A stretch of DNA of 32,000 nt from Candidatus Saccharimonadota bacterium (GCA_004563595.2 CP042461.1:930001-962000); one strand, 5' to 3'; shown: positions 1 to 32,000, counted from the first letter of the stretch. The notes: generated from the letters alone by a model not told the origin. Translations and numbers: made by a program.

Positions 1-858
1 TGATGTAGCCGTTCAGTTGTAATATACTGCATTGCCTATACTTGGTTCTGCAGAACATGCATAAGATACAAGCTTTCCTCATAAGAGTAATACTGCAAAA
101 TTTTCTAAATCGTTATTATCACCTAAGTTTACTCAAGAGAGATAATTGTATTCTCCAGCACTTAAATCAGTTGATCCACTATAAGCAGAGTGTAGGTTTG
201 TTGTAAAATTTGCATAATTACCAGAAATATTACTTGTATTTACTCCTAAATCTTGCACTGTAAATAGAGTGTCATGTGTATCTACATGGAACGTTGATTC
301 CGCAGATAAATCTGCACCATCAGCATGAAGTGAAGGTGATGCATAGTATTTGTTATCACCTCAAATAACATAAAAACCATTATATTGTCATACTACCTTT
401 GGAAAAGTTGTTTCAGAGGCATAAGTAGAATTTGTGATATTATTTTGTTGTGTTACCTCAAAATCATACATAAGTTGATATTCCTTTTGATTCAAGGTTG
501 TTGAGTAATTCATATATTTTCAAGTCAATGGGTCTTCTGGGATTTTTGATATCCTCCCAACTTGTGTTTGTATAGAAGTAGCTACTTCTCATGTATGCCA
601 AAGGTTTGTTCCTGATGCTGTTACGAGTGTTGATGAGTCTGGAAGAGGGTACTTACCATACTTAATCACATGTAATTCTAATACATTTTTAATTGATTGC
701 ATATCAACTATTCTTGTAGAGTTTCTGGCTAATTTACTATATCATTGAAGTGATATAAAAGCGATTGTTCATAAAATAGCCAAAATAGTAATTGTAACGA
801 TCAATTCAACAAGGGTAAAAGCTTTAGTAGATCGATATGTTTTTTCAAGTATGTTCAT
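1..858 (-). CDS. Type IV pilin / pseudopilin-like protein (prepilin-type N-terminal methylation domain); the C-terminus runs off the left edge
   Basis: ATG at complement 858-856. The code-25 frame is open for all 286 codons down to position 1. The N-terminus MNILEKTYRSTKAFTLVELIVTITILAILGTIAFISLQGY has a short basic leader, the FTLVELIV motif (Glu at +5) and a hydrophobic helix, which is the class III prepilin signal. There are several in-frame TGA codons. Confidence 0.7.
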
Positions 859-974
859 AATAGTGCTCTATATTATATTCTTAAAATACTCAAATCATGT
901 TATAACAATTTGTACTAATTGCAAAAGTATTTCCTATAAATGATAGCTAAAGTATTATAAACAATAATAAAATA

Positions 975-1022
975 AAAAGTAAAGAGTATTTGGCTTTAAC
1001 TTACCAAATACTCTTTACTTTT
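975..1022 (-). terminator. Rho-independent terminator downstream of aspS
   Basis: Perfect 19-bp stem aaaagtaaagagtatttgg (975-993) / ccaaatactctttactttt (1004-1022) with a 10-nt loop. On the minus strand it is followed by a T-rich run. It lies 20 nt past the aspS stop. Confidence 0.6.
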
Positions 1023-1042
1023 CATGAAGATATGTTGAGATA

Positions 1043-2827
1043 TTATTCCTCTTCTTGAATAACTTCAATATGAAGTTCTGTTAATTGTTCATCATCTATA
1101 AATGAAGGCGCATTCATCATAGCATCTTGACCTTTTCATGATTTAGGAAAAGCATATACTTCCCTAATATTATGTTCATCCTTGAGAATCATCATAAATC
1201 TATCCATTCAGATAGCAAATCATCCATGTGGAGGAACTCCATATTGAAATGCTTCATACATAGCTCCAAATTTCTCTTGTACTTCTTCTTTTGTTCTTCC
1301 TACTGTTTCAAAAGCTTTTACAAGACTTTCAATATCATGATTACGGATTGAACCTGATAATATTTCATACCCGTTACAAGCAAGATCATATTGAACTGAT
1401 TTTACATCTAACAGATTTTCTTCATTAAATGCTTCTACTCAACCTTTTGGCATAGAGAATGGATTATGTCCAAAATCTATTTTTCCTGTTATTTCATTTT
1501 CTTCAAACATTGGGAAGTCTGTTACCCAACAAAATGCAAGTAAGTCTTTTGAAGCAAGATCCATGAGTTCTGCTAAGTGGATTCTAAATCTTCCCATATA
1601 ATCACAGACTAAATCTTTTTCTCAAGCTCAGAAGAATACTACATCTCAAACTTCAAGCTTTGTAACATTTACTATTTCTTGTAAATCAGCTTCTGTAAAG
1701 AATTTATTGAGAGGTCCTTTTAATCCATCTTCTTTCATTTGAAAATATCCAAGTCCTTTTGCTCCAAATTTTCTTACATAATTTTCAAATCCTTTCATTT
1801 GAGTTTTTGAAAATACATTATCTCCATTTGGAACTCTAATAGCTTTGATTCTGTTTGTTGTTTTATCACTTGCAATAGAAGAAAAAATTTCATTTGTACT
1901 TTTTGCAAAGATATCAATCACATCTACTAATTCTAATCCATATCTTAAATCTGGCTTATCTGAACCATATTTTTCCATTGCATCAGCATAACTCATAGAA
2001 TAAAACTTTGAATCAAGCACTTTTTTATCAGAGAGTTCTTTTACCGTATCAAACATAAAATCCTCTACTACTTTGAAGATATCTGATTGTTCAACAAAAC
2101 TCATTTCACAATCAATTTGATAAAATTCACAAGCATGCCTATCTGCCCTTGGGTCCTCATCTCTAAAACAAGGAGCAACTTGAAAGTATTTATCAATTCA
2201 TCCAACCATTAATAGTTGTTTATATTGTTGAGGTGCTTGAGGGAGTGCATAAAACTGCCCTGGATTTAATCTTGAAGGAATTACAAAATCTCTTGCTCCT
2301 TCTGGAGATGATGCTGTAAAGATAGGAGTTTGTACATCTAAAAAGTCTCTATCAGTAAACCAGTTTCTTGTAAAATTTAAGAATTTTGATCTGAATTTTA
2401 TATTGTCTAAAACTTTTTTTCTTCTGATATCAATATATCTATGTTTATATCTAATTTCTTCATTTGCCTCTTCTGTATGTTCATCAAGCTCAAATGGTGG
2501 AGTCTTAGATTTTGATAATAATACCACCTTTGAAACAATTATTTCAACTGCTCATGTAGTCATATTTTTATTTTCTTGCCCTTCTGGTCTTGACCTTACA
2601 GTCCCTTCTATTTGAATCACGAATTCACTTCTAAAAGTGTTTGCTAGTTCGTGAGAATCTGCATCATCTTCAGGGTCAAAAACAACTTGAGTCAAACCAT
2701 ACCTATCTCTCATATCAATAAAGATAATTCAACCATGATCTCTTCTATTACTTACCCAACCAGATAAAGTAATCGCTTCCCCTATATTTTCTTTTGTGAG
2801 TTCATTACACGTATGAGTTCTTAACAT
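1043..2827 (-). CDS. aspS: Aspartate--tRNA ligase (bacterial type)
   Basis: 595 codons, ATG at complement 2827-2825, TAA at 1045-1043. It joins the standard-code fragments 1646-2104 and 2198-2527 in one frame across TGA codons. N-terminus [32 protein letters not shown](G)[11 protein letters not shown]. The motif 3 region is YGVPPHG(G)FAI(G)MDRFMMIL...AFPKS, where (G) marks a TGA at an invariant Gly. Confidence 0.95.
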
Positions 2828-3021: not shown

Positions 3022-4185
3022 ATGCCTAGTATATTCTATGAAATTTTTAATAAACATATTGATCTCAATGCAAAAGGGCTCAGAAAAATCAAAGGTGCTC
3101 TTGACCAATTATTTAAAGAGTTAGCTGAAAAATCTGATATTGATAACTTAAAAGTTACTAGAAATAGATTAGAAATCCTTCTTCATGAAAAATGAAAAAA
3201 AGCTGATAAAAAAGGAAAAAAGGACTTGAGAGCTTTGTATGTTATTCTTGACGAAATCAATGATTTTATAGAAGAAAAGGAAAAAGTAAAAAAAGATTCT
3301 ATAGAACTTGTGGATGTTGTTAAAAAAGTAGAAAATAAATATAAGGTTTGTAAAAATGTAAAAGAAGAAAAAAGAGGTAAATATATTCAAACTTGTGTAA
3401 AACAAGAAACAATTGATTATGAAAAAGAACTTATACAATTACAAGTTGAGTTGTTAAAACTTCAAAAACATATCAAAGAAAAAGGTGAAAAGCTTCTTAT
3501 CATCTTTGAATGAAGAGATGCAGCTTGAAAATGAGGAACTATTAAAAGATTCAGAGAATATTTAAATCCAAGATGAGCAAGAGTAGTTGCTCTTGAAAAA
3601 CCAACAGATTTAGAAAAATCACAATGGTATTTTCAAAGATATGTAAATCATCTTCCAAGTGGTTGAGAAATGGCATTCTTTGATAGAAGTTGGTATAATA
3701 GAGCATGAGTGGAACCAGTAATGGGATTTGTAAATAAAAATGATTATAATAAATTCCTTACTGATGTCCCATTATTCGAAAAAATGCTTATTGATTCAGG
3801 AACAAAAATAATTAAGTTTTATTTTTCAGTTTCAAAATCAGAACAAGCAAAAAGATTTGATTCAAGAAGAACCAACCCCTTAAAACAATTTAAACTATCT
3901 CCTATTGATCAATTCTCTCAAGAATTATGGTGAAAATATTCACTTGCTGAATATAAAAATTTCTCTACAACTCACTCAAAACATGCTCCATGGACACTTG
4001 TAAAAAGTGATGACAAGAAAAAAGCGAGAGTAAATGCAATTAAATATGTATTAAATCAATTTGATTATGAAGATAAAATTGATAAAAAAGCATTAAAGCT
4101 TGATCCAGAAATAGTTTATGATGGAGAAGAAAAAGTAAGAAGATTATCTGAAGAAATTGATATAAAAAAAGATTTATTTGAATAA
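3022..4185 (+). CDS. ppk2: Polyphosphate kinase 2 family protein with a long N-terminal coiled-coil extension
   Basis: 388 codons. It joins ORFs 3226-3513 and 3709-3933 in one frame. The hallmark is LLIIFE(G)RDAA(G)K(G)GTIKRF...LNPR(G)ARVVAL..P...E....YFQRY...LPSG(G)EMAFFDRSWYNRA(G)VEPVMGF. Three Walker A glycines are encoded by TGA. Stop is TAA at 4183-4185. Confidence 0.9.
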
Positions 4186-4360: not shown

Positions 4361-4990
4361 CTAAAAATTAAATACGTCCACAACTTTCCCGTTCACTCTT
4401 ACATTATCGTCTTCTGACAAGATAATTGGTTTATGGTAGTCGTCATTTGAATCTGGAAGAAGATAGAGAGTTCCTCCATCTTTTTTATATTTTTTAATGG
4501 TAGCAGAATTATTTACTATAAATAGAAATGCATCTTGTTCATTAGGTGTAGATTCTTCTTTTTTTACGAGTATGTAACTTCAGTTATTAATGTTTTTCTC
4601 ATTTACTACAAAATTATTCATAGATGTCCCCTCTATTCTTAAGACAAAATAGTTTGATTCATCTCATGAAATAATATTCTTTGAGATTGGTAAAACTCCA
4701 TAATCACTTTCTGCTGCCTCAACAAGAGGAGTTCAAGCATTCGCATACCCCAGTATAGGGATATTTAGTGTTGTTTGAAATCATACTGAGTTTCAAAGCT
4801 TAATAGATCTAAATCAAAATCACCTGGTTAAAAATCATTTTTTTTCTAGTACTTCAAGGTATTGAGTTACTCCCCTTTTAGATTTTTGATTTAATAGGTT
4901 TTTCAACTCCTCAATTGTTGGAGATTTTCCATATTTTGAGATAAACTCTGTAATAGTATCTAGAACGAATTGTTGTTTTTCTGTAAGCAT
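4361..4990 (-). CDS. lexA: LexA repressor (wHTH plus S24 autopeptidase)
   Basis: 210 codons, ATG at complement 4990-4988, TAG at 4363-4361. MLTEKQQFVLDTITEFISKYGKSPTIEELKNLL...RGVTQYLEVLEKK(G)FL is a LexA-type DNA-binding domain. ANA(G)TPL matches the Ala-Gly self-cleavage site. RIEGTSMN matches the catalytic Ser and ATIKKY the catalytic Lys. Confidence 0.85.
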
Positions 4991-5190: not shown

Positions 5191-6444
5191 ATGAAAAAAT
5201 TAATATCACTTATATCAGCTCTTGCTCTGATAGTCTCATTTTCTTTTTCAGCTGTTTTTGCTGACCATAACTACTGACACAGTAAAAAAATAGAAAAAAC
5301 TGAGAAAAAAGTAAACAAAGCAAGTAAAAAAGCTTTAAAAGCTCTTGAAAAAAATAAAATAAAAAAATCTGCTAGATGAGAAAGAATTAAAAAGAAACTC
5401 AAAAAAGCTTTAAACAAAAGGTTTAAAAAGCTTGATAAATATTCTGTTGAAAAACAACTTGAAATCTATAACAGATTAAATGAAAGAATTGATCTACTCA
5501 TTGAAAGAAGTGGTGATAATGCTCTTCACTCTGCAGTATTTGAAATATTAAGAGAAATTGTCGATGCTAAAATTGCAGAGTTAACATGAACCTGATCGAT
5601 AGATGAAGATGACATTATAGATGATGTTGTTAATGGTGATGATGAAGATGAAGATGAAGACGAAGATGAGGACGAAGACGAAGACGAAGATGAAGATGAA
5701 GATGAAGGTGAAGGTGAAGGTGAAGATGAAGGTGAAGATGAAGGTGAAGGTGAAGGTGAAGGTGAAGGTGAAGATGAAGATGAAGGTGAAGGTGAAGATG
5801 AAGGTGAAGGTGAAGATGAAGGTGAAACAGAGGCTAGAGAAGCTATAGATGATGCAGCTGAAGAAATAACTAAAGCTGAAGATGCTATAAGCGAAGCCCA
5901 AGAAGACGGAAGAGAAACTGGAGCATCTGAACAATTAGTTGAGGAAGCAAAAGAAGCTCTTGAAGATGCAGAAGCTAAATTCGATGCAGGTGAATTTGAA
6001 GAAGCTGAAGATCTTGCTGATATAGCTGATGATTTAGCAAAAGATGCAAGATTAGAATACCTGTGAGAAACAGTTGAAGAACTTGAGGCAGATAGAGCAG
6101 ATGAAAATTTAGAAACAGAAGCTCAGGAAGCTATAGATAGTGCAACTGAAGAAATAACTGAATCTGAGGAGGCTATAGCAGAAGCTCAAGAAGATGATAG
6201 AGAAACTGGAGCATCTGAACAATTAGTTGAAGAAGCGAAAGAAGCTCTTGAAGATGCACAAACTAAATTTGATGCAGGTGAATTTGAAGAGGCTGAAGAT
6301 CTTGCTGAAGAAGCCCATGATTTAGCAAGAGATGCAAGACTAGAATACCTCTGAGAAACAGTCGAAGAACTTGAAGAAGATAGAACAGAAGATGAAGATG
6401 AAGATACAGGTACGGGAACTACAAGTACATGAACGACTAATTAG
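5191..6444 (+). CDS. Exported, extremely acidic repeat protein (signal peptide, Lys-rich helix, DE/GE low-complexity tract, two 91-aa helical repeats)
   Basis: 418 codons. Signal peptide MKKLISLISALALIVSFSFSAVFA|DH. A 63-codon run of (D/E/G)E follows. The module E..EAID.A.EEIT..E.AI.EAQED.RETGASEQLVEEAKEALEDA..KFDAGEFEEAEDLA..A.DLA.DARLEYL(G)ETVEEL..DR then occurs twice. Stop is TAG at 6442-6444. Confidence 0.8.
5638..5826 (+). repeat. Hexanucleotide (GAAGAT / GAAGGT / GAAGAC) microsatellite-like tract encoding the DE/GE run
   Basis: Read directly as gat gat gaa gat gaa gat gaa gac ... gaa ggt gaa ggt ... for 63 codons. This tract also generates the spurious ORFs 5581-5934(-) and 5621-5848(+) in the ORF track. 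Confidence 0.9.
5824..6384 (+). repeat. Two 273-nt in-frame near-tandem repeats (5824-6096 and 6112-6384) inside the acidic protein gene
   Basis: The two copies align codon for codon with mostly synonymous or conservative differences. Both carry TGA at the same position (LEYL-G-ETVEEL). Confidence 0.85.
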
Positions 6445-6543: not shown

Positions 6544-7842
6544 ATGCCTTATTCAAATGTCATACAAATAGTAAACAAACTCCACACAATATGAAAACAA
6601 ACATATATTGTAGGGGGCTATTGTCGTGACTCTATCTTGGAATTACAACTTGATTGAGATATAGATTTAGCTACCAATGCTCTTCCTGAAGAAATTGAAG
6701 ATAGTCTCAAAACCATTGCACATATCGGAAAAAAATATGGAACATCCATTATAAACGAATGAAACGAGTATTATGAAATCACTACTTTTAGAAAAGATAT
6801 ATGATCAATAAATAATAGAAAACCTGCTGAAGTAGAATTTACTGACAAATTAGAAGAAGATGCAAAAAGAAGAGACTTTACTATGAATGCAATCTATTAT
6901 AACCCAATAAAAAGTGAATACATTGACCCAACTTGAGGTATCAAAGACTTAGAAAATTGAATTATTCGATTCATCTGAAACAAAGAAGATAGAATAGACG
7001 AAGATGCTCTGAGAATCCTCAGATATATTAGATTTAAAAATAAATATAACCTAGAAGCCGCAAAGAATACATACACAGATACATTAAAACGTAAGATACA
7101 TTTATTGCAAAATATATCGATAGAAAGAATCAAAGATGAGCTAGATAAAATACTGCTACTAGAAAATAATATCCAAGCCTTAAAAGATTTAAAAGAAATA
7201 TGATTTTTTACATTATTTTTAACTGAAATTGAAGCTCTAGAAAATACCCCTGGGTCTAAATATCACCAAGAATGAAATGTATGGATTCATACACTTATGA
7301 CTCTCAAGTATTTAAATTGACTGAGAAAAAAATCAAAGAAAGATGCTAGTTATTTTCTAGACCTATACTGGGCTATGTTATTTCATGATATAGCAAAAAC
7401 TGAGTGTCTGAGTACAGATTCTGATTGAAATGTTCATTACTATGGTCATGAAAACTCTGGCTCAGAAATATTCAGATCAAAAATTGCACAAGAATTGAGA
7501 TTCTCTACATCATCAAAAAATAGAATATCTTGGATAATAGAAAATCACCTCAAAGTATTCAAGGTCATGGAAATGAAAAAACTAAAAAGTAGAAAGCTAA
7601 TGATGCATAAGTACTTCACAGATCTCATGATTATTTGAGAATCTGATCATATGTGAAGGATTCCTGCAACAATAGATGTTGTTGATAGATTAAAAGAGTT
7701 TTACTCTGATTTTCAAGAAATACTCTCAAAAAAAACTTTTTTTACTGGAAAAGATATCATGAAGAAGTATCCTCACCTTCAATGAATTGCTATATGAAAT
7801 AAACTCAGAGAAGAAAATGATAAAATATTAATATCGGATTAA
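6544..7842 (+). CDS. cca: CCA-adding enzyme / tRNA nucleotidyltransferase (PolyA-pol head plus HD domain)
   Basis: 433 codons. Conserved motifs are YIVGGYCRDSIL....D(G)DIDLAT, KRRDFTMNAIYY, DP.(G)GI.DL.N(G)IIRFI(G)...RI.EDALRILRYIRF and an HD region LFHDIAK...HYYGHE. There are many in-frame TGA codons. Stop is TAA at 7840-7842. Confidence 0.85.
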
Positions 7843-7915: not shown

Positions 7916-8572
7916 ATGAAAATACTCATCGTAGAAGATAATGAAATTCTCTCTCAGAATATTGCCACATATTTGAAATTAGAAAATATTCAATCAAAGC
8001 AGTTATTTGAGTGAGGACAAGTAAATTATGAACTTACCATGAATAATTATGATTTGGTTATTCTTGATTTATGACTCCCTGATATAGACTGACTTGATAT
8101 ATGTAAAAAGATAAGAGGTAGTGAAAAAAATATACCTATACTTATGCTCACAGCAAGAAACACTACACAAGATAAAATATCAGGATTTCAGTCTGGATCA
8201 GATGATTATTTAACAAAACCATTTGATTATGAGGAATTACTCATGAGAATACATGCTCTCATAAGAAGAAATTTTACAGTGAAAAGTAATAAAATAAATA
8301 TATGAGATATAGAATTAAATATTGCTGATAAAAAAGTCTCTCTACAATGAGAAGAGGTACATCTCAGTAATTTAGAAATTGACTTGATCATATATCTCGT
8401 TCAAAATAAATGAAAAGTAATATCAAAAGAGGAGTTATTAGAAAAAGTATGGTGAGAATATGATGCTTATAGTATGAGTAGAACTGTTGACGTATACATA
8501 TGATATCTCAGAAAAAAACTTGGAAAAGATTTAATAGAAACTATCAGAGGTCAATGATACCTTATTCGTTAA
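7916..8572 (+). CDS. OmpR/PhoB-family response regulator (receiver plus winged-helix)
   Basis: 219 codons. MKILIVEDNE...LVILDL(G)LPDID(G)L...PILMLTA....D...G...G.DDYLTKPF matches a receiver domain. The C-terminus ...LS..E.DL..YL..N.(G)KV.SKEELL.KVW(G)....S..RTVDVYI(G)YLRKKL matches a trans_reg_C winged helix. By hand count about 10 of 16 Gly codons are TGA. Confidence 0.9.
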
Positions 8573-8586
8573 AATTTCATACGAGA

Positions 8587-9774
8587 ATGGAAAATTATAG
8601 ATTATTAGAAAAACATAGAAAAAAACTCAGTATATATTTTGCATTATTTATACTCTTTTCACTTTGGATCACTGAAGGAATCTTCTTGTTATCAAATTAT
8701 GTTACTCACAATATTGAATTAGAGGGCAAACTTGAAACAAGAATAGTCTGAGTAAAAAATATTATCTCAAATAAATGAGAATATTTACAAAAAATTGAAT
8801 CAAATGATTATACTATTAAAGTAATTCTTGAAAAAACCCTCGATTGAGTAACCATTATTGAGAATTGAGATCGAATCTTAGGTAATATTAATCATGAAAT
8901 TTTTATAGATCAAGGAGAAATACTCAATAGTACTCAATATAAATTTTATCAAGAAAATTTTATACTCAACTGAAATGATTATACTGTTATTATTCAATCT
9001 TTTAATGAGTATTCATACTATAAACTCGGAAAAGAATATTGATATTTTATAATATTTTCCCTTCCCTTCATGATATTTTTCTATTTCATTTGATACATAT
9101 TTGTTTGAAAGAACTTTCGACCAATAAAAGAAACTATTTCATCTCTTGAGACTTTTAGTGCAAATATTAATCATGAAATGAAAACTCCACTTGCTGAAAT
9201 CATTTCAACACTGAGTTTAGCAAAGAAATTAAAAGGAAATTATGATGAAGCAATTAACCAAAGCTTAAAATCATCAAAGAAATTAAATAAGATACTTGAT
9301 TCAATGTTATGAATCATTAACTTAGTCGATTCATCATATAAACAGGAGAAAATTGACTTAGTGTCTGAACTGAAAGAAATTATCAAAGAAAACAAAACCA
9401 AAGCTGAGAAAAAAAATATAAAAATAAAAACTGATTTTATGAATAAGTCGTATACTATTCATATCAATAAAGAACATTATCACATATGTGTTTGAAATAT
9501 TCTCAAAAATGCCATTAAGTATTCACATGATAATTCTAAAATAAAGATAAAATTTGAGGATTGAAAAATAGAGGTTACTGACTTTGGAGTTTGAATAGAA
9601 GAGAAAAATTTAAAAAATATTTTTAACAGATATTTTAGAGAGGACTACATTAAAGAAGAATGATCATGACTTTGACTCGCTCTGGTTAAAAAGATAGTTG
9701 ATATGCACTTATGGAAAATAGAAATAGAGAGTAAAAAAGATAAATGAACAAAAGTAACATTAACTATTGTGTAA
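8587..9774 (+). CDS. Sensor histidine kinase (two TM segments flanking a ~115-aa extracytoplasmic domain; HisKA plus HATPase_c)
   Basis: 396 codons, starting 14 nt after the response-regulator stop. H-box NINHEMKTPLAEI, N-box NILKNAIKYS, G1 VTDF(G)V(G)I, G2 E(G)S(G)L(G)LALVKKIV. The G2 glycines are encoded by TGA. Confidence 0.9.
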
Positions 9775-9802: not shown

Positions 9803-10252
9803 ATGAAAAATATAATATATATTATCCCCTTACTATTCCTTTTTTGATGTTCATATATTAATGAGGAGCAAGTTATTCAAAGTAAGAGCCCAGAAACAAA
9901 TATAGATTCATTTTTATGACTCACAGATACAGATTCTGATAATATAAAAGATATTAATCTAGTAGATACCAGTACATGAAAAGCTTGAACAGAAATACCA
10001 AAAAGAACGAGTCCGGATGATATCAAGGACAATACTGATTTAAATGAAATATGAGATGATACATCAGAAGAAAAAAAAGAAACCCCTGATACTCAAATAG
10101 TTGAAACCGAACTTGTCAAAATAGAAAATATAGAAATTGAAGTAGATGATACTTTAGTTCAAGAAACTGATGAAGAAGCAACTATCATTGAAGAATTTAC
10201 AGATGAAGACATAGAAGAATTAATTGATATTTTATTTGAGACATCAAGTTAA
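9803..10252 (+). CDS. Small acidic lipoprotein
   Basis: 150 codons. MKNIIYIIPLLFLF(G)CSY contains the lipobox LF-G-C, and its Gly is a TGA codon. The mature part is strongly acidic (DTDSD, EEFTDEDIEELIDILFE). It starts 28 nt after the kinase stop. Confidence 0.7.
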
Positions 10253-12150: not shown

Positions 12151-12191
12151 AAAAACGAGAAATGATCCTCCTTATCATTCCTCGTTTTTTT
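12151..12191 (+). terminator. Rho-independent terminator
   Basis: Stem aacgagaaatgat / atcattcctcgtt (13 bp, 1 mismatch), a 7-nt loop, then a T-run. Confidence 0.7.
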
Positions 12192-12689: not shown

Positions 12690-12721
12690 AAAAAAGAACG
12701 GAAATTTCCGTTCTTTTTTTT
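12688..12721. terminator. Bidirectional rho-independent terminator between convergent genes
   Basis: The sequence aaaaaaaagaacggaaa / tttccgttctttttttt is a perfect palindrome with flanking A and T runs. Confidence 0.75.
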
Positions 12722-12724
12722 ATA

Positions 12725-17110: not shown

Positions 17111-17160
17111 AAGTAAAGTTTTAGAAATATAATACTTATTTGTCATAATATAGAAGTAAG

Positions 17161-23072: not shown

Positions 23073-23124
23073 AATAAAAACGGCTATAAATAGCCGTTTT
23101 TATATTCAATATTTTAATGGAGGT
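23073..23124. repeat. Direct repeat copy B (tRNA-Cys terminator plus spacer plus the last 7 nt of tRNA-Cys)
   Basis: The sequence is aataaaaacggctataaatagccgtttttatattcaatattttaatggaggt. The hairpin stems are conserved relative to copy A and the loop differs. Confidence 0.75.
23076..23101 (-). terminator. Terminator downstream of tRNA-Cys
   Basis: The palindromic sequence aaaaacggcta taaa tagccgttttt lies 17 nt past the tRNA 3' end. Confidence 0.65.
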
Positions 23125-23191
23125 GCCAAGCGGGTTCGAACCGCTGTATACGGTGTTGCAGACCGCTGTATAACCACTCTACCATGGCACC
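23118..23191 (-). tRNA. tRNA-Cys (anticodon GCA), CCA encoded
   Basis: The minus strand reads GGTGCCA TG GTAG AGTGGTT A TAC A GCGGT CTGCAAC ACCGT ATAC AGCGG TTCGAAC CCGCT TGGCACC T CCA. It has a 7-bp acceptor stem, a D-arm with a G13:A22 mismatch (typical of tRNA-Cys), an anticodon loop CU-GCA-AC, a T-loop TTCGAAC and discriminator U73. Confidence 0.9.
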
Positions 23192-23296: not shown

Positions 23297-23863
23297 TTAT
23301 TTACATTTAAATGTTTTTATTAATGCTTCATATTTTGAAGTATCTTTTATTTCTGTAGAAAGAGCAATTGTGAATAAAAAAGCTTTATTTTGGTTACAAA
23401 CATGAGCGGTTTGGAGAAATTTTAACTTTGGAGTCTCCATATTATACTTTGCTTCAAAGATATAAAGTATACTCACCTCTTCATCTGTAAAAATAATTTC
23501 TTTTGAATCAAGTTTTGTATACTCAAGATAATCTTTTGATGCTCCTACATTATTTAGCATTGAAAACTCTTTTGATGTTGTAAATGTATTCAAAGTATCA
23601 GATAGGATAAGCATATTATTAGAAAATCATGCTTTGATCTCTTTAGAGGTTACAGCCAGCTCAATATTTCCATCACTTGGCTTTGGAAGAATTCTCTCTA
23701 CATCCTCAATCACTCACCAAGAAGCAGGAATCGAAATAGAAAAATCACTCAATGGCATCTGTGTTAATCATTTTGTTGATACTTCAGTAGTTTCTAAAGC
23801 ATCATCACCACAAGAAACGATAAACAATGATAAAAATAATAAACAAAGTACTTTCTTGAACAT
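23297..23863 (-). CDS. Lipoprotein, unknown function
   Basis: 189 codons. It extends ORF 23297-23614 upstream across three in-frame TGA codons. MFKKVLCLLFLSLFIVSCGDD contains the lipobox IVS-C. Confidence 0.7.
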
Positions 23864-23867: not shown

Positions 23868-24221
23868 TTAGTTTAAAAAATATAAAACCCCTCATTTAAC
23901 AGCTATTGGGAGAAGTAAAAATATAAGTAAATTTACAAGTATAAAAAAAAGGATGTAAAATAAAAAATTTGAAATTTTTCCAATAAAAATATTTTTGAAT
24001 AAAAAGTAGAGATAATAAAAAAGAGACATGAGAAAGAATAAATATGTATATGGAAGAGTCAGGACCAATTCATTACTATAAAACTTTGCTCATACAAAAA
24101 AGAAATTCACAAAAAACATAAAAGCAGCAAAAACAAACAAAAACTTTGCAGCTTTATATCTATGCACAGTAATTATTTTTGGATCTCAAAATTCTTTTTT
24201 TAATATTTCTTTCAATCACAT
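23868..24221 (-). CDS. Small integral membrane protein (about 3 TM)
   Basis: 118 codons. I checked every triplet and found no TAA or TAG. The protein reads M(G)LKEILKKEF(G)DPKIITVHRYKAAKFLFVFAAFMFFVNFFFV... and its stop lies 4 nt before the lipoprotein ATG, consistent with an operon. Confidence 0.5.
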
Positions 24222-24286
24222 ACTTGATTTTTTTCAATTTAAAAATATATTTAAATAAATATACATTTAATTAATCATACAAATAA

Positions 24287-24574
24287 ATGAGCTTAACACA
24301 AGAACAAATAGAAAAATTACTCAAAAATCTAAGTAAAATTACTACCGATAATAAAAAACTCGGAGATGATGCAAATGAAATCTTACAATATATTGAACTT
24401 TTAAATGAAGTAGATACTACATGAGTGAAATCAACAGTATCTGTAATACAAAAAGAAAATACTCTCAGAGCAGATATCCAAAAACCAAGCGTTTCAACTA
24501 CAGCTGAGCTTTTAGCTTGTTCAAACCAAAAAGTTATTAATAATCAAATAGCAATTGGAGCAATAATGAAATAA
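24287..24574 (+). CDS. gatC: Asp/Glu-tRNA amidotransferase subunit C
   Basis: 96 codons. MSLTQEQIEKLLKNLSKI..........ANEILQYIELLNEVDTT(G)VKSTVSV......LRADI......ELLA matches the GatC pattern (L.EVDT..V.P........LR.D). Confidence 0.75.
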
Positions 24575-24579: not shown

Positions 24580-25617
24580 ATGATAGAATCAATAAAATTA
24601 GTAAATTTTAGGAATTTTCATGAAAAAAAATTGGATTCTATTCAAGAAAAAAATTTCATTGTGTGAGAAAATGGTGCCTGAAAAACAAATATACTTGAAG
24701 CTCTTAGTCTTCTCTGAAATAATTCTCTCTCTGGTTTACAAATAGAAAATTTTGTAAAAAAATGAGAGAATATTTTTTATATTGAATATCAAACAAGTGA
24801 ATGAGACACGGTTGCTCTCTCATATGACAAAGAAAAAAAGAAAAAAAATTACATAGTAAACGGAAAACATGTCAGTAAAAAGAAATTTACAGATGCCGGT
24901 TACAAGTGTGTGGTATTCTCCCCTATCATCATGAACCTTATGTACTTATCACCATCACTCAGAAGAGACTTTCTTGATACTATACTCTCAAATTCATATT
25001 CTGAATACAGCAATGTACTCAAAGAATATAAAAAAATACTCTCTAGTAGAAATAAAGTATTAAAGAATATTTCAGAATGACAGAGTAAAAAAGAAGAAAT
25101 ACTTTTTTGGGATACAAAATTTATTGAAAAAGCAAGTAAAATATATGGATACAGATTTAAACTCATACATTTTTTTGAATCTCAGATTTCACAGTCATTA
25201 GAGTACTTTAATGGAAAAATAGAAAATATAGACTTTATCTATAAAACAAAAATAGATGAAGAAAATATAGAAAAAAATATCAGTAGCTATATAACAGAAA
25301 ATATTGAAAGAGATATAATATTAGCCAAAACTCCTATTTGACCACATGTAGATGATTTTGATATATATGTCGATGGAATCAGCCTGACCTCATATGCATC
25401 AAGGTGAGAAACAAAGAGTGTGATACTTTGGCTCAAACTTCTTGAAATAGTCTTCACGGAAAAAATGACATGAAAAAAGCCAATCTTACTTATCGATGAT
25501 CTTCTCAGTGAACTTGATGACGTTCACAAAGATATGTTTACAAAAAAGATTAAATACTATCAGACGTTTATCACATCCATACATATATGAGAAGAGAATA
25601 ATATTATTAAATTATAA
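24580..25617 (+). CDS. recF: DNA replication/repair protein RecF
   Basis: 346 codons, starting 5 nt after gatC. IKLVNFRNF.......NFIV(G)EN(G)A(G)KTNILEAL is a Walker A with TGA glycines. Further motifs are SLRRDFLD, I(G)PHVDDF, ASR(G)ETKSVILWLKL and PILLIDDLLSELD (Walker B). Confidence 0.9.
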
Positions 25618-25713: not shown

Positions 25714-27102
25714 ATGAAATTAACTAGAAAATTAATATTATCAGTTATCCCTCTACTTTTCCTTTGATACTCATCAGTACTCGCAGCTTGAATAGACCAC
25801 TTTGAAGTGAAACTCAGTCCTGAAAGTGCAGAAGTATGAGAACCTCTCGATCTTATCATTGAAGCTGTTGATAAAAACAATGCAATAGTAACTGACTATA
25901 ATGGAACCATTCTTATCTTTTCAGAAAGTGATCCTGAAACAGAGTTACCAACTATATTAGATGAAAATACATATGTTTTCTCAGACACAGATCAATGAAA
26001 AATTACATTTGAAAATGCAGTAAAATTTAAAGCAGCATGAACTCAAGATATGCATATATATGATCTGAATGATGATACTGTACTATGAGTTGCTGAAGTA
26101 CAAATAACACAAAAAGAAGTAGAAGAAAATATAGATATAGATATACTCTCTCCTGAAAACTGACTTACTATTTGAGAGAATAAAATAAATATATCATGAA
26201 CTACTAAAAAGAATCATACTATAAAAATTATTATAAACGGTACTACTGAAGTAAGCACAACCAGCAATGACTCATGACTTTATGAAAAAGCACTCGAAAG
26301 TTTAATTGACTGAGAAAATACAATAAAGACACAAGTCCTCAATGCTGATGAAGAAGTGGTATGAGAATCAGAAGAAATAAAAATACAGGTTGAATCTAAC
26401 CTTCCTCAACTCAAAAATATTAAACTTACTCCTTCTGAAGTAGATCCTGAAAGTGGTTTCGAAATAGAAATAATAGCAAATAAATGACTTGTAGAAGTAA
26501 GTGTGGTAATAGATGATGTACTTACAAAATTAGAAGAAACAGAAGAATGAATATATAAAGCAAATATCTTTTCACCTAAGAAAGCATGATCTTATAAAAT
26601 AGATACTGTTCTCAAAGATGAACTATGACATGAAACAAAAGAGCTTTGATCAAGTAACTTAGTAGTAAATGAGTCTGAACATAATGCTGCTGATATTGAA
26701 AAAGAGACTGAGACTCCAGTAGTTATTAATGAAGAAGATCCTGAAATAATTGATATAAAAATATCTGGATTAAAACTTACAAAACTAAAATCAAAATCAG
26801 TATTAACTTGGGACCAAGTAAGTTGAGCAGAAAACTATGCTGTATACAAAAAATTAACTTCTTGAGAATTAGAATTTGTTGAAAACGTAGTAGAACCAAG
26901 ATTTGAAATAGAAATAACTTGAGATGAAATTCAATATGAGTATTTCGCAGTAAAAGTAGTAACAAAAACTGCTAGCTGAGAACTTGTATTCTCAGATCCA
27001 TCTGAAATTACAAAAATTCAAACATGACCAGAAATATTAATTCTTTTCATACTCTCACTCTTCATCGGATGATTCATATTCATGACAAAGAGAAAAGCAT
27101 AA
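25714..27102 (+). CDS. Cell-surface protein with Ig/FN3-like domains and a C-terminal sorting-signal-like tail
   Basis: 463 codons, with the frame verified line by line. Signal peptide MKLTRKLILSVIPLLFL(G)YSSVLAA. FN3-like region ISGLKLTKLKSKSVLTWDQVS(G)AENYAVYKK. C-terminus KIQT(G)PE-ILILFILSLFIG(G)FIF-MTKRKA. Confidence 0.8.
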
Positions 27103-27154: not shown

Positions 27155-27943
27155 TTAAAATCCTCTCAATCCTTCCCCTATAAACAATCCCCCATTTTTC
27201 TTAATAATATCTAAAAATACTAAATATAAATCATAATCAATATTTTTCGCTATTTCTTTGAGCCTATTAAATGACATAATAAATTTAAATTGTCCGATAT
27301 CATAAAAGATATCTGTATTTAAAATTTTAGAATACTTTTTAATTGTTTTATTCAGTAAATCAACAGGTATTCATTCTAAAGTATCATTCAGTAATGCTGC
27401 TTCAATTAATGAAAGTTCTAAATTAGAAATTTTAAATATGAGTCATTCAATTTCTTTATCAACAACATACTCTGATAATTTTGAATATAAATTTATCTTC
27501 TTTCAATTATCTTTTCAAGAAACTGTTTTAAAGATCACTTCCAAATTTCAAAACTTTATTTTTTTATTGAGACTTCTATTTACAATAAATATTTTTTCTG
27601 GAATTTCTCAATTCTTCATATGAAATTCCAAAGCTTTTTTTCATGAGATATAATATGCATTTCATACGTAATATGTTATATATTTCTTTATAAGCCTCAG
27701 ATAATATTTTTCTATTAAATCTACCTTATTTAAAGTTTTATCATCCTCAGACGGTACTACATATACTCATGCCTTCATTGATATGAGTATTCATTGAGCT
27801 TTTAACCTATATATAAGTTTATCCACTCAAGCTTTATATTGCTCCTTTTTTTCAGGATCAATCAACTCAAAAATATCTGACTTCAAGAATACTTTTCATC
27901 ATTTTTTTAACAGTTTATTCACAATTTTGTCAAAAGTTAACAT
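27155..27943 (-). CDS. AbiEi-like (type IV TA antitoxin / wHTH regulator-like) protein with no adjacent AbiEii
   Basis: 263 codons. The N-terminal wHTH-like part ends in LKAQ(G)ILISMKA(G)VYVVP (compare AbiEi ..G.l.r..rGvY). It is followed by YYIS(G)KKALEFH....IP.KIFIV......K...G...V.F......... and NLELSLIEAALL (compare yiS..sAL..hgl / E.tllD). The family call is pattern-based only. Confidence 0.5.
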
Positions 27944-28119: not shown

Positions 28120-29043
28120 TTAAGAAATTTTTTCTTTTTGAACTAATGTCATATGTGGATATGGGATCTTGATAGCTGACTGTTTACATGCTAAGTTCAA
28201 AGTCTCCGTCACGTTTGATTTCAGCTGTATATAATCATCATCGGTATGCATCCAAAATCTAATTAATAATTTTATTCAACTATTATCAAGTTTATCAACT
28301 AAGATATCCGGATGAGGAGCATTTAATATATTAGGGAAACTCTCAATTACTTTTAAAATAGTTTTTTTCGTCTTAACAATATCAGTATCATAATCAACTA
28401 ATAATTCTATTTCCGTTCTTCTTTTATCATTTGTTTTAAAGTTTGATATCACCTCTTCCATAAATATTACATTTGGTATATAGAAAATAACTCCATCAAG
28501 CTGTTCCATAGAAGTAAAAAGTGAGTTTATTTTTACAATCTTTCATTTCTTTCATCTGACTTCCACCAAATCTCAGTTATGATAAAATCATTGAGTTACC
28601 ATAGTTATTCATCAAACAAAATTTGTTAAGAATGTCTTCAGGGTAAATCATAAACCAAATCAAATTCATCACATAAATATACCTAAATCTACTCATAAAA
28701 TAGAAAGAGATGCTGATCCTCATATAAATAAAAATGTAATATTAACTGTTCTAGATAACATCCCTGCCATTTCTTCTGATCATCAACCTTCACTTCAATT
28801 TCTTTCTAAAAAACTTGTTAATTTAGCTGAAACAATCCTTGCAATTACTATTGAAAGAATCATCACCACTACAGCAAAAACAAGATTTAACAAAGTCTCA
28901 GCTGAAAAAAATCTTGTAAATGCTGACGTGTTTTGCTTTGCTTGTTCTAAATTTTGATCTCACAAAGTAGCTGCAAATCACGATGGTAAATCAATAATTA
29001 GTGCTGTGATATAAACTATAAATAATAGTTTTAATTTTTTCAT
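28120..29043 (-). CDS. MscS-family mechanosensitive channel
   Basis: 308 codons. It extends ORF 28276-28509 in both directions across TGA codons. The pore and beta-domain signature is (G)(G)I(G)F(G)L(G)FTLKTFLTNFV(G)(G)ITMVTQ(G)FYHN(G)DLVEVR(G)KK(G)KIVKINSLFT...VIFYIPN....EVISN. Confidence 0.88.
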
Positions 29044-29047
29044 AAAT

Positions 29048-29115: not shown

Positions 29116-31110
29116 TTATTTCATGATTCTATAATTATAGTTATCTGGAACATATACTCACTTAATACTCCCCATACACGTGATAATATTATTATGCCAA
29201 TGATCTGGACTAGAAGCATATATAGATCAGGTTTTATTTCAATATCTACTTAAGTCTTTTATTTCATTATATTTTCATAAATATTTGTTATTCAATGTTT
29301 TTATCATCCAATATACTCATGATCTTGCATTTGGAAATGCTTTTACGGCACCAGAATCGGTATTTCAAATATTTCAAACATTATAAGGTGTCTTCAAATG
29401 AAGTCATAATCAGCTTTCTGCTAATCAAATACACATAACAAACGTTGGGTCAATATTTCCATCGAGTGATTCTTCAACCCACATATCCCAATTTCTAAAT
29501 GCTCATACAGCATATTTATCTATGAGACTTTGTTGCCTTTCTACTTCAGAAAGTCAATCAAGTTTAAACACTTTAGAATTCTTAGCCCTTTCTACATATG
29601 TGTATCATTTTCTTTCTTTAAAATCTACAGAATACTTGAATCTGTATTTTTGTGGAAGTCTATCAAATTGAATAAATGAAATATTCATAACACTTAAAGG
29701 ATCTACATATGCCTCATCTTTAAATACCTCAAAATGTAAATGTGGTCATGTAGTCATAAGTCACGCTCATTTTGTACCAAACTCTCAACCTGTTTTTCAA
29801 ATAACTTGTCATTTACGGACAAAATCAAATTCATTTATAAATACTTCATTCACATGACCATATACAGTCAAATATCCATCTGAATGTTTTAATGCAAACG
29901 AAGAATACTCTCCAGACGTTGGTTTTTGTATGAAGGTTACATATCAATCTGCTGGTGCTTTTATATCCGTTCATTGGTTTTGAACTATATCAATAGCATC
30001 ATGAGTGGATCAGAATAATTCCTCATACTCAGAATCATGATAATAAGAACTAATTCATAGCTTAGGAGAAACTGGCCATGAAAATATATTTTTTCATACT
30101 ACTCAAAATCATTTCAATTTTGATTCAGCGTAAATAACTTTATTTAATTCAAGACATTTTCATTTTAAACTTGCTCATTCCAAAGTGTCTTTTCATAAAT
30201 CTACAAATCTACATCCATACTTCTCTAATAGTTTTTGTTTTACATTATTAAATTTTATTTTCTCCTTAAATGTCCTTAATTTTACTGCTTTTTCTACTTT
30301 TAGCTTGTCATAAATATATCTTTCATATAACGCTTGTCTTCACTTTGAAACTTTTATAATCCTCTCTTTGAAGTCTTTTTTATCATTTAAAATTTTTCTA
30401 TCAATAATTCCAAACTTCCTTACTTGCTTTAACTTCATTTCTTGTTTTTCTAGATCAATCTTCTTGATATATAATTCTGAGACGAATTTTCTATGTTTAT
30501 CAATCAGTTTTTTCCCAGTCACTTCAATGATTCATTTAAAATATAAATCATTTAAGATATCAGAAATATTTTCCTCATTTAAAAGAATAGTTTTTAGGTT
30601 ATCTACTTCTGTTTCACCATAAACATTATTTCATTTCTTATATATATAAACTAAATACTTCAAAAGAACTTTTCTATTCTCATATATTTTTTTTCTTAAC
30701 AACTCTATTGTTTTCTTACTCCCTCAAACCTCTTTTTTAATACTGATAATTTTTGCATTCACCTTATTTACTTTGTCAGTAGCCTCTTGAATATCGTCAT
30801 CTAGCAACTGTATTGATTCTTCTAGTGATAGTATTCTCGCTGCAACATTTTCTTTTTTATTTTCAAGCTTTTCTCTTTCTGTAGATATTTTATCTTTAAT
30901 ATTTCAAAAAATATTAATTTTTTTTGAAATATTAAAGATGCTAGCATCTTCTTTATCTATTTCTGATGTTTGAGTTTCAAATAATAACTCATACTGAGAT
31001 TTTTTAAAATTCTCTAAAATAGCTCCCTTTTGTTTTACTGAAAGGGCTCTCACTCAAGAAGAAAATAGAAAAAATATTAATAACAAAGAAATGATCTTTT
31101 TTTTATGCAT
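29116..31110 (-). CDS. Exported coiled-coil M23 metallopeptidase with an extra C-terminal glucosaminidase-like domain
   Basis: 665 codons, in frame with ORF 30340-30522. Signal peptide MHKKKIISLLLIFFLFSS(G)VRA. A long coiled coil of the EnvC type follows. The M23 core is HDAIDI...(G)TDIKAPAD(G)YV....GY.TVYGHV.......V.K(G)QVI(G)KT(G)....(G)PHLHFEV. The C-terminal region ...MCI(G)LAES(G)L(G)LHLKTPYNV(G)NI(G)N... resembles muramidase/glucosaminidase ESG.G...NN.FG motifs. Confidence 0.85.
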
Positions 31111-31141
31111 GACCTATAATAAAAATTAAGCGACTGAAGTA

Positions 31142-31516
31142 CTAACTATCTATATTTTTAATAAATAACTCTGTAAAAATTAACAATAATAACAATGCAA
31201 ATCCCGCAATGAATATTGAAGCTCCGATAACCTTAAAAAATATTAAGGATAACAGAAAACTTGCAATAAAAAATCATTGCCTAAAGCTGGTTAATACATG
31301 GTGAATATAAATTTTTCACCTAAAGTATACTTTTTTTATAAAGTATAAAAAAAACGAAAAAAATGCTGATGCTCAGAGTAAAAAAGTAAACACAAGAGAC
31401 ATAAGTCAAATCATTTTATGACTATAGGGGTCTAAATAGTATATTATTAAGAAGAAAGTCATGAGACTTAGAAGGAATATAGCAAGGATTATTAACAGGA
31501 GGAATCTTTTTTTCAT
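31142..31516 (-). CDS. Small integral membrane protein (about 4 TM)
   Basis: 125 codons reading MKKRFLLLIILAIFLLSLMTFFLIIYYLDPYSHKMI(G)LMSLVFTFLL(G)ASAFF.... Stop is TAG at 31144-31142, 31 nt upstream of the M23 start. Confidence 0.55.
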
Positions 31517-31593
31517 ATTTTTTTAAAAATTGATTGTAACAAGTATTAATATAAGGGAAAAACAATAAAAAACAACATTTACTTCTTATCTGT

Positions 31594-32000
31594 TTACAAT
31601 TTTGATCTTATTCTAATTTTCTCAATTGTTTCACATTTTCAATGATCTCAAATCTCTACACATACCCCATTCACAACATAATCATTTCATAAATTTTGTT
31701 CTATTTTTCATCCTAATCATGTGAGAAATCTCTTTTTTACACTTTCAAAGTCTGCTCATATCACAGAATACAATGGCCCATTCATTCATACATCTGATAT
31801 AAGTCATGTTCATTGAGGAAGAATAAGCTCATCATTCGTTTGAATATGCGTATGGGTTCCAAATACAAAACTTGCTTTCCCATCAAGTAAGTAAGCCATC
31901 CCATATCATTCTGATGTTGTTTCTTTATGAAAATCTATAAAAATTCCATCAAATTTTTCATTTTCTAGACTTTTTAATATTTCTTGAACTTTCAAAAAAG
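31594..32000 (-). CDS. ymdB: YmdB-like metallophosphoesterase (TIGR00282 type), C-terminal part; the N-terminus lies beyond the right edge
   Basis: The partial frame is ...FDGIFIDFHKETTSE(G)YGMAYLLDGKASFVFGTHTHIQTNDELILPQ(G)T(G)LISDV(G)MNGP...V.(G)....V..RF... . Stop is TAA at 31596-31594. Confidence 0.8.

Follow-up and report, generated by a model that had tools for sequence, protein, structure and literature searches.

A sense codon UGA at glycine positions in a 32-kb stretch of the Candidatus Gracilibacteria bacterium 28_42_T64 chromosome

How is UGA read in a stretch of DNA whose genes fall apart under the standard code? The stretch analyzed here (32 kb; hereafter the window) has a GC content of 27.9%. 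Under table 11, its longest open frame is 199 aa, and the 22 frames that stay open for 100 aa or more sum to 8.5 kb, in line with an earlier note on this DNA, which had seen only short ORF fragments under the standard code. With TAA and TAG as the sole stops, the longest open frame reaches 812 aa. After manual correction, the gene set comprised 32 protein genes, 30 of them complete, and a tRNA-Cys gene, together spanning 89.8% of the window (Table 1); the earlier count of 33 genes was close. The protein genes hold 361 TGA, 266 GGN, and 57 TGG codons in frame, and TGA is present in nearly every gene, at a frequency of 375 per 10,000 codons. The 31 genes with a 3' end inside the window stop at TAA (27) or TAG (4). 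The earlier statement that all genes end in one of these two codons is thus accurate, but it is true by construction because TGA was taken as sense. That UAA and UAG still act as stops is indicated by AspRS, whose C-terminus lies no more than three residues from the end of its alignment with the Pseudomonas aeruginosa (P. aeruginosa) enzyme.

Table 1. Features of the window, with in-frame TGA and GGN codon counts and the homology evidence used for each gene.
Feature	Position	Strand	TGA / GGN	Evidence or remark
Pilin-like protein, N-terminal methylation motif	1..858	-	9 / 13	3' end off window
Aspartyl-tRNA synthetase (AspRS), 594 aa, TGA-poor	1043..2827	-	10 / 29	Pfam, PDB alignment, 77 orthologues
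Polyphosphate kinase 2 (PPK2)	3022..4185	+	8 / 10	Pfam, PDB; exact match QFR39426.1
LexA-like repressor	4361..4990	-	8 / 8	Pfam, PDB, relatives' DNA; exact match QFR39427.1
Acidic repeat protein (DUF4398 x2)	5191..6444	+	7 / 23	
Hexanucleotide repeat	5637-5826			inside acidic repeat protein gene
288-bp tandem duplication	5824-6389			inside acidic repeat protein gene
CCA-adding enzyme / poly(A) polymerase family with HD domain (g06)	6544..7842	+	15 / 9	Pfam, PDB
OmpR-type response regulator	7916..8572	+	9 / 6	missed by greedy ORF caller
Sensor histidine kinase	8554..9774	+	16 / 7	Pfam; start 8554 or 8587
Hypothetical secreted acidic protein	9803..10252	+	5 / 0	
Hypothetical protein	10298..11095	+	3 / 3	66-nt imperfect tandem repeat 10427-10558
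Hypothetical coiled-coil protein	11284..12132	+	2 / 2	
YjdM/PhnA-domain protein, 81 aa	12444..12689	+	3 / 5	called YjdM on source contig
Bactofilin-like protein, TGA-rich	12725..13828	-	30 / 6	
EamA-family transporter	13904..14755	-	14 / 7	
Hypothetical protein	14771..15850	-	18 / 16	carries one of two CGG codons in window
YHYH-domain protein	15947..17146	-	21 / 18	
Hypothetical protein	17257..17622	+	0 / 6	carries second CGG codon of window
Class A penicillin-binding protein (PBP; transglycosylase + transpeptidase)	17773..20055	-	38 / 17	100% identical to A9Q91_04395; Pfam, PDB
Hypothetical protein	20295..20900	+	11 / 2	
Pseudouridine synthase without S4 domain (g20), GC 36%	20925..21500	+	1 / 18	Pfam
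Hypothetical membrane protein	21622..21936	+	1 / 6	
Hypothetical protein	22026..22997	-	10 / 1	weak methyltransferase match
tRNA-Cys (GCA)	23118..23191	-		sole RNA gene of window
Hypothetical lipoprotein-like protein	23297..23863	-	3 / 3	
Hypothetical membrane protein	23868..24266	-	5 / 2	
GatC	24287..24574	+	1 / 2	
RecF	24580..25617	+	10 / 7	Pfam, PDB; exact match QFR39447.1
Hypothetical surface protein with C-terminal membrane anchor	25714..27102	+	23 / 5	
Hypothetical protein	27155..27943	-	13 / 6	
MscS-family mechanosensitive channel	28120..29043	-	18 / 6	Pfam
M23 peptidase with coiled-coil N-terminus	29116..31110	-	35 / 14	Pfam, PDB, relatives' DNA
Hypothetical membrane protein	31142..31516	-	4 / 2	
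YmdB-like metallophosphoesterase, C-terminal 134 aa	31594..31998	-	10 / 7	start beyond window

Two ORFs were judged spurious during curation: one at 12162-12374, and one at 12422-12679 that is longer than the YjdM/PhnA gene on the opposite strand, where six-frame translation shows the + strand gene. The same translation assigns to the YjdM/PhnA gene a conserved stretch at 12479-12728 (71-80% nucleotide identity to 10 relatives), which had been considered as a non-coding RNA; Rfam gave sub-threshold matches only, on a terminator hairpin.

If TGA were a true stop, as in the standard code, these genes would be pseudogenes or products of sequencing or assembly errors, and the short table 11 frames would fit that reading. 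However, the 361 in-frame TGA codons stand against no in-frame TAA or TAG in approximately 9,570 codons, where about 613 were expected from the off-frame density. The TGAs occur at conserved glycines and match codon-for-codon in the independent assemblies of relatives, the window itself shows no difference from an independent ENA assembly across 20.6 kb, and TGA did not fall at random with respect to conserved residues. We therefore regard the standard code as exceedingly improbable here.

Which residue UGA encodes was addressed with motifs, composition, profiles, and structures. Besides glycine, a candidate is tryptophan (code 4), the reading used by Mycoplasmatales and by several insect endosymbionts; the low GC content and the clear use of TGA as sense are compatible with it, and some public pipelines have used it, so that W-translations of these very window genes exist publicly (P0122, P0126, and P0131). 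Every motif in which the earlier note had placed TGA at a glycine was found, with TGA where it was said to be. With TGA written as x, AspRS contains RDHG-x and PPHG-x-FAI-x-MDR, the PBP contains FF-x-x-NSYG, and the M23 peptidase contains x-PHLHFE; the Walker A motifs are spelled E-TGA-RDAA-TGA-K-TGA-G in PPK2 and TGA-ENGA-TGA-KT in RecF, and the G2 box of the histidine kinase is TGA-S-TGA-L-TGA-L. Translation with code 25 gives 6.5% Gly and 0.6% Trp, whereas code 4 gives just 2.75% Gly and 4.4% Trp. Comparison of the table translations by profile score, a check proposed earlier, pointed the same way: the G translation scored clearly above the W translation in 14 of 18 Pfam domain matches (in the other four, the difference was <1 bit three times and 3.5 bits once), and over one set of eight domains in five proteins the bit sums were 878.7 for G, 806.3 for S, 795.7 for A, 768.9 for R, 736.4 for C, and 710.8 for W, the lowest of the six residues. 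The residue aligned to each TGA, also proposed for tabulation, was mostly Gly. In PDB alignments made with TGA masked as X, and hand-counted from the printed alignments, Gly was found at 42 of 73 aligned TGA positions (binomial p = 2e-28 against a 7.5% background of Gly) and Trp at none. The roughly 40% of TGA positions that face another residue in these distant homologues reflect ordinary divergence, because GGN codons behave alike (about 30%); in a control with five of the same alignments, GGN codons fell on Gly in 21 of 30 cases and TGA in 22 of 39 (Fisher p = 0.32). Protein matches from Gracilibacteria were left out of this evidence because public translations already embed the choice of G or W.

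Orthologous DNA gave the same answer. All ten window TGA columns of AspRS are Gly-majority among 77 orthologues, in which the TGA and GGN counts are strongly anticorrelated (r = -0.94) and add up to a constant 41.8 ± 4.1; the closest relatives are at most 80% identical and mostly labelled as Gracilibacteria MAGs. In the 22 TGA-free orthologues, Campylobacter and Peregrinibacteria included, these columns are 89.5% Gly, with log-odds (in bits) of +38.6 for G and -24.3 for W, and none of the 78 sequences has TGA at the three Trp-conserved AspRS columns. When other window genes were compared with relatives' DNA, TGA stood opposite TGA in 264 cases and opposite GGN in 197, and it was never paired with TGG; at the TGA columns of the LexA-like repressor, the relatives have 72 GGN and 64 TGA and no other codon. 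Within the window, the 66-nt tandem repeat (10427-10492 and 10493-10558) cited earlier is real but weak, with 45 of 66 nt identical and no TRF call; the exchange of GGA (10436) for TGA (10502) between its copies was confirmed (LLE-G-EQLTDEER and LLE-TGA-ERLTDEER). The claim that Trp is not tolerated at TGA sites is borne out by the PDB positions and the AspRS log-odds, and together with the composition, the Pfam sums, and the Trp-conserved columns, these alignments already refute code 4, which we consider very improbable.

Six window proteins, when translated with glycine, match GenBank entries for Candidatus Gracilibacteria bacterium 28_42_T64 with 100% identity, all encoded on a contig of 1,343,103 bp. 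The window thus belongs to the closed chromosome (1.343 Mb) of 28_42_T64, a member of Patescibacteria/CPR that NCBI places in the phylum Candidatus Altimarinota, and the earlier attribution to a Gracilibacteria/Absconditabacteria-type genome was correct. UGA is a sense codon in this window and stands where homologues have glycine; the independent tests all favor Gly, and not one favors Trp or stop, as the earlier note had proposed for the whole stretch. We estimate a probability of about 97% that 28_42_T64 uses code 25, in which UGA is glycine, UAA and UAG are the sole stops, and UGG is tryptophan.

A variant of code 25 in which CGA and/or CGG has also become Trp, a change predicted to have occurred in Absconditabacteria and in some Gracilibacteria, has to be weighed against this reading. 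CGG = Trp was predicted in some Gracilibacteria (Shulgina & Eddy 2021, PMC8629427), seven relatives (L064, L065, L068, L069, L071, L075, and L080) have CGA or CGG in place of TGG at Trp-conserved AspRS columns, and CGG has almost vanished from the window, where its two codons are both in proteins without informative homologues. By contrast, each of the three AspRS Trp columns has TGG in the window, and the window's CGA codons occur at conserved Arg, namely R50 in the GRLD motif of the pseudouridine synthase (read from the sequence) and R142 of the CCA-adding enzyme family protein, which is aligned to Arg in CCA-adding enzyme. This variant is improbable, though less so than code 4.

According to the literature, code 25 as used by 28_42_T64 would be decoded by a UCA-anticodon tRNA that bears the identity elements of glycine (G1:C72, C2:G71, G3:C70, and U73); loss of RF2 (prfB) would leave nothing to terminate at UGA, and RF1 would handle UAA and UAG. 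With UGA and GGN synonymous, a strong A+T mutational bias (28% GC) would then turn GGA into TGA. For 28_42_T64, prfB was not detected and prfA is present (Sieber et al. 2019, PMC6851277). No tRNA(UCA) was found in the window, whose one tRNA is tRNA-Cys, or in 63 related loci scanned (60 AspRS loci and L131-L133). A pattern scan of metagenomes for Gly-identity tRNAs with a UCA anticodon returned 50 loci. We accept as real a 79-nt tRNA(UCA) family with a 7-nt loop, located beside tRNA-Gly(GCC) and carrying the Gly acceptor-stem identity set (L081, L082, L096, L110, and L118), on UGA-recoded, low-GC contigs from genomes other than that of the window. A second, large family, located on BNJS/BNJT/BNJU contigs of Mb size, was dismissed as artefactual: the tRNA arrays that ARAGORN reported there have anticodon loops of 6 and 8 nt, and ORFs are sparse whichever code is applied, which fits homopolymer errors that make tRNA-Gly(UCC) look like UCA. 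Because the window ends inside the YmdB gene, and YmdB lies about 70-550 bp from tRNA(UCA) in L082, L100, and L123 and about 1.8 kb in L105, such a tRNA was suspected just past position 32000; this was rejected because the syntenic relatives L131-L133, which have the YmdB ... M23 order in all three and then MscS in L131, lack a tRNA at this place. ARAGORN labels UCA-anticodon tRNAs 'tRNA-SeC', which would suit UGA as selenocysteine, or programmed readthrough, in an unreassigned code. However, the TGA frequency is far too high for SECIS-dependent decoding, the positions are glycines rather than Cys/Sec sites (736 bits for C against 879 for G), and the tRNA(UCA) of recoded contigs has Gly identity and neighbors tRNA-Gly(GCC), making this the least probable of the explanations.

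TGA is the commonest Gly codon of the window (361 against 129 GGA, the latter counted in a preliminary gene set), as the earlier note had estimated, but its overall share of 58% is at the low end of the suggested 60-80%. The share per gene has a median of 59%, an interquartile range of 44-70%, and a full range of 0-100%; it tends to be higher in AT-rich genes (Spearman -0.46 against the GC of non-Gly codons, p = 0.016), and the variation between genes is far above a purely neutral model (p = 6.5e-5 for AspRS and 2e-6 for the pseudouridine synthase). Restricting the estimate to 'native' genes is not supported, as there are TGA-low genes but evidence of foreign origin for only one, the pseudouridine synthase. 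This gene has one TGA among 19 Gly codons and a GC content of 36% in a 28% GC genome; its protein is 83-86% and its DNA 80-82% identical to genes on Campylobacterota contigs, where the single TGA aligns to GGG. It is the best candidate for a possible import from standard-code bacteria, and if imported, it would indicate gene flow from Campylobacterota into Gracilibacteria and perhaps a host or prey relationship. Whether the TGA share is a clock of a gene's residence, with TGA-poor genes being recent standard-code imports still undergoing 'amelioration', is a tentative idea that we consider somewhat doubtful. It does not obviously explain AspRS, for which selection against UGA in particular genes is an alternative. 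Among recoded relatives, TGA makes up 0 of 40 AspRS Gly codons in L001 and L038 and 36 of 41 in L018.

Predictions that UGA is glycine in Gracilibacteria and SR1 date from 2012-2013, and proteomic confirmation followed in 2014. Code 25 in Gracilibacteria (BD1-5) and Absconditabacteria (SR1) was reportedly described by Wrighton in 2012, Campbell and Rinke in 2013, and Hanke in 2014. The recoding is therefore already known, and UGA = Gly here has no scientific novelty. The 28_42_T64 genome was itself published with code 25 (Sieber et al. 2019, mBio, PMC6851277), proteomics of a BD1-5 bacterium found 97 Gly-specific and 3 Trp-specific peptides (PMC4032931), and for 13 of 15 Gracilibacteria species Codetta predicted UGA = Gly (PMC8629427). 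The consequences for annotation are considerable: with table 11 every gene is broken into pieces, and with table 4 some 360 glycine positions become Trp; possibly useful by-products are limited to the gene-to-gene TGA differences and one likely cross-phylum gene transfer. The window differs in nothing from the published BD1-5/SR1 case: UGA is Gly, only UAA and UAG stop, the GC content is low, the genome is CPR-sized, prfB is reported absent, and the window proteins equal the code-25 translations in GenBank. With code 4 of Mycoplasmatales, Entomoplasmatales, and insect endosymbionts, it shares the captured codon, an AT-rich reduced genome, and RF2 loss, but UGA is Gly rather than Trp, and the decoder of code 25 is, per the literature, tRNA-Gly(UCA). 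With the Absconditabacteria-type recoding (UGA = Gly plus CGA/CGG = Trp), a sister lineage, it shares the UGA reassignment, whereas CGA has kept its Arg meaning at conserved sites, TGG stands at Trp columns, and CGG, with two codons, is too rare to judge.

UGA is a sense codon for glycine in this stretch, as the earlier note had read it; the stops are UAA and UAG, and UGG remains a tryptophan codon. The window has a GC content of 27.9%, and under the standard bacterial code it yielded 22 open frames of at least 100 aa, which summed to 8.5 kb and did not exceed 199 aa, whereas open frames reached 812 aa when the stops were limited to TAA and TAG, which agrees with the earlier description of mere ORF fragments under the standard code. 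The gene set was started from a greedy ORF call (32 ORFs) and corrected manually by removing two spurious ORFs and adding an OmpR-type response regulator gene and a YjdM/PhnA-domain gene (see table). If the histidine kinase gene is extended to its most upstream start, it runs into the response regulator gene (8500-8590); the kinase therefore probably starts at 8554 or 8587. For the conserved stretch around the YjdM/PhnA-domain gene, a non-coding RNA reading was rejected in favor of this gene. The corrected set comprises 32 protein genes (30 complete) and one tRNA-Cys gene, covers 89.8% of the bases, and contains 361 TGA, 266 GGN, and 57 TGG codons in frame, with 27 TAA and 4 TAG as gene stops. 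No TAA or TAG was found in frame inside the genes, against approximately 613 expected from the off-frame TAA/TAG density if they were non-coding. An independent ENA contig (ERZ510998, NODE_17; 412,643 bp) was identical to the window across the 20.6 kb fetched. Pseudogenes or sequencing errors are excluded as explanations of the in-frame TGA codons, as are selenocysteine insertion or readthrough at UGA. Every quoted protein motif was found with TGA at its claimed place, and the GGA/TGA pair in the 66-nt tandem repeat was borne out (LLE-GGA-EQLTDEER versus LLE-TGA-ERLTDEER); the repeat copies are identical at only 45 of 66 nt and gave no TRF call.

Coordinates of features in the window and in fetched loci of relatives or metagenomic contigs (L-numbers)
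Feature	Sequence	Coordinates	Strand	Remarks
AspRS gene	window	1043-2827	-
Hexanucleotide repeat, acidic protein	window	5637-5826		31.7 copies; codes for runs of alternating Asp/Glu and Gly/Glu
Tandem duplication, acidic protein	window	5824-6389		288 bp, 87% identical; two DUF4398-like units
OmpR-type response regulator gene	window	7916-8572	+	occupies an apparent 650-bp gap
Spurious ORF	window	12162-12374		removed
Spurious ORF	window	12422-12679		removed; strand opposite the YjdM/PhnA-domain gene and longer than that gene
Conserved stretch	window	12422-12730		DNA identity 71-80% to 10 relatives
YjdM/PhnA-domain gene	window	12444-12689	+	within the conserved stretch
Hairpin	window	12685-12724		bidirectional terminator-like; between the YjdM/PhnA and convergent bactofilin-like genes
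Pseudouridine synthase gene (g20)	window	20925-21500	+	191 aa, GC 36%
tRNA-Cys(GCA)	window	23118-23191
AspRS gene	L001, L038	10001-11800		TGA 0/40
AspRS gene	L018	10001-11812		TGA 36/41
g20 homologue	L134	5001-5579
g20 homologue	L135	5001-5579		GC 0.40 vs 0.275 in surroundings
79-nt tRNA(UCA) site	L096	8419-9179
79-nt tRNA(UCA) site	L118	1934-2573
79-nt tRNA(UCA) site	L082	624-796
79-nt tRNA(UCA) site	L110	241-402
79-nt tRNA(UCA) site	L081	2639-2799

The residue composition was 6.5% Gly and 0.6% Trp under code 25 (UGA as Gly), and 2.75% Gly and 4.4% Trp under code 4 (UGA as Trp). When ten conserved proteins were retranslated, a check that the earlier note had proposed, the glycine translation scored clearly above the tryptophan translation in 14 of 18 Pfam domain matches, including Transpeptidase (125.7 versus 85.9 bits), M23 (77.7 versus 48.6), PPK2 (311.5 versus 281.9), and HATPase_c (76.8 versus 52.9); three of the remaining matches differed by less than 1 bit and one by 3.5 bits. 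Further residues, namely, one-base-change neighbors of UGA and small residues, were placed at TGA in five TGA-rich proteins, and the bits summed over the same eight domains were highest for G (878.7), followed by S (806.3), A (795.7), R (768.9), C (736.4), and W (710.8). We also masked TGA as X, aligned seven proteins with solved structures from standard-code organisms, and counted the residues opposite X by hand. Gly was found at 42 of 73 aligned TGA positions (binomial p = 2e-28 versus a 7.5% Gly background): 7/10 in AspRS, 6/7 in PPK2, 5/9 in RecF, 13/24 in PBP1A, 4/7 in M23, 4/8 in the CCA-adding enzyme, and 3/8 in LexA. In five of these alignments, Gly was opposite GGN at 21 of 30 positions and opposite TGA at 22 of 39, a difference that was not significant (Fisher p = 0.32). 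Trp occurred at none of the 73 positions and had the lowest Pfam sum, which excludes code 4.

A genome scan for AspRS returned 80 loci, the majority labeled Gracilibacteria MAGs, with Peregrinibacteria and Campylobacter included, and 77 orthologues were translated from DNA. All ten TGA columns of the window AspRS were Gly-majority, TGA being the next commonest codon. Each orthologue had between 0 and 36 TGA codons; the fewer there were, the more GGN codons were present (r = -0.94), and the two together stayed constant at 41.8 ± 4.1. Among the 22 TGA-free orthologues, Gly occupied 89.5% of the window TGA columns and 77% of the window GGN columns, and Trp occupied 86% of the window TGG columns. 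Over the ten TGA columns, Gly had a log-odds of +38.6 bits, with the next best residue at -19.3 and Trp at -24.3. Where other genes had relatives among the fetched loci, TGA of the window was opposite TGA 264 times, GGN 197 times, and TGG never.

TGA was the commonest Gly codon in the window (349 TGA, 129 GGA, 79 GGT, 40 GGG, and 7 GGC in the preliminary gene set), but its share per gene ranged from 0 to 100%, and the differences between genes far exceeded chance. The share was low in AspRS (10/39, p = 6.5e-5), the acidic repeat protein (7/30, p = 2.7e-4), the hypothetical protein g17 (0/6, p = 0.006), and g20 (1/19, p = 2e-6), and high in the bactofilin-like protein (30/36, p = 0.002). The low share in the acidic protein arises because the Gly codons in its repeat are GGT. 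In L001 and L038, from recoded relatives with a TGA-free AspRS gene, the neighboring PPK2, LexA, and CCA genes do use TGA. The AspRS pattern would amount to avoidance or turnover of UGA in particular genes. Across genes, the share was higher in AT-rich genes (Spearman -0.46 against GC of non-Gly codons, p = 0.016); this correlation fits G-to-T drift under AT pressure, which may have led to TGA dominance once UGA and GGN were synonymous.

Other Gracilibacteria copies of the g20 protein match it at 88-91% identity. The single TGA of g20 is opposite GGG in genes from Campylobacterota contigs (Sulfurimonas, Sulfurovum, Poseidonibacter, and one 3.5-Mb contig); these genes share 83-86% protein identity and 80-82% DNA identity with g20, and are 80-88% identical among themselves. 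On the 3.5-Mb contig, the homologue lies among mobile and defense-type genes. The simplest reading of these identities is that an unusually conserved gene was likely transferred horizontally across phyla.

Read with TGA as glycine, the PBP gene product showed 100% identity across 760 aa to A9Q91_04395, which is encoded on a 1,343,103-bp contig of Candidatus Gracilibacteria bacterium 28_42_T64 (Patescibacteria group, Candidatus Altimarinota in the NCBI taxonomy), and five other glycine translations exactly matched QFR39426, 39427, 39439, 39442, and 39447 of this organism. From matching size (1.343 Mb), GC (28.87%), and coverage (42x), together with the isolate name, we infer that this is the closed genome of Sieber et al. 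2019; the main text of that paper does not give the isolate name. In that paper, genes were predicted with code 25, prfA was present, prfB was not detected, and 33 tRNA genes were reported (PMC6851277). From the literature, a UCA-anticodon tRNA-Gly would decode UGA in this genome, and with RF2 absent, UGA would no longer cause termination. No tRNA(UCA) was found in the window, where tRNA-Cys is the sole tRNA, or in 63 related loci. A metagenome pattern scan that required a UCA anticodon together with the acceptor-stem identity set of tRNA-Gly gave 50 loci. One match family was set aside as the product of homopolymer errors in long-read contigs: the Mb-size, low-GC BNJS/BNJT/BNJU contigs (L083, L088, L094, L095, L097, L102, L111, L112, and others) carry dense tRNA arrays, often with 6- or 8-nt anticodon loops, and scarce ORFs under any code, and the odd arrays look like such errors rather than biology. 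The second family is 79 nt long, with a proper 7-nt anticodon loop, the Gly identity set, and an enlarged D-arm, and immediately precedes tRNA-Gly(GCC) on contigs where ORFs are open only if TGA is read as sense. In L096 and L118, the pair is followed by a small conserved ORF and tRNA-Arg(GCG); a YmdB gene lies approximately 70 to 550 bp from tRNA(UCA) in L082, L100, and L123 and approximately 1.8 kb away in L105. This tRNA supports the mechanism for recoded bacteria generally, not for 28_42_T64 specifically.

The glycine finding, correct and well argued, was already known: textbooks list this alternative code, and the genome has been published with code 25 annotation. Proteomics in the lineage confirmed it (97 Gly-specific versus 3 Trp-specific peptides; PMC4032931), and a Codetta screen recovered it (PMC8629427). 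Public gene-calling pipelines give window genes with Trp at every TGA, as under code 4 (protein entries P0122, P0124, P0126, and P0131), and the JGI gene calls for relatives consist of code-11 fragments, such as YmdB pieces of 142 to 232 aa; both show database corruption by UGA recoding. Absconditabacteria are known to have CGA/CGG reassigned to Trp, and the same change has been predicted in some Gracilibacteria (PMC8629427), but for CGA it is not supported here: window CGA sits on conserved Arg in two proteins, and window Trp columns retain TGG. The two CGG codons in the window are too few to judge CGG. At three Trp-conserved AspRS columns, TGA occurred in no sequence compared, TGG occurred in 64 to 74 sequences, and CGA or CGG occurred in L064, L065, L068, L069, L071, L075, and L080. 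These seven relatives thus reproduce the Absconditabacteria-type pattern, whereas the window is without it.
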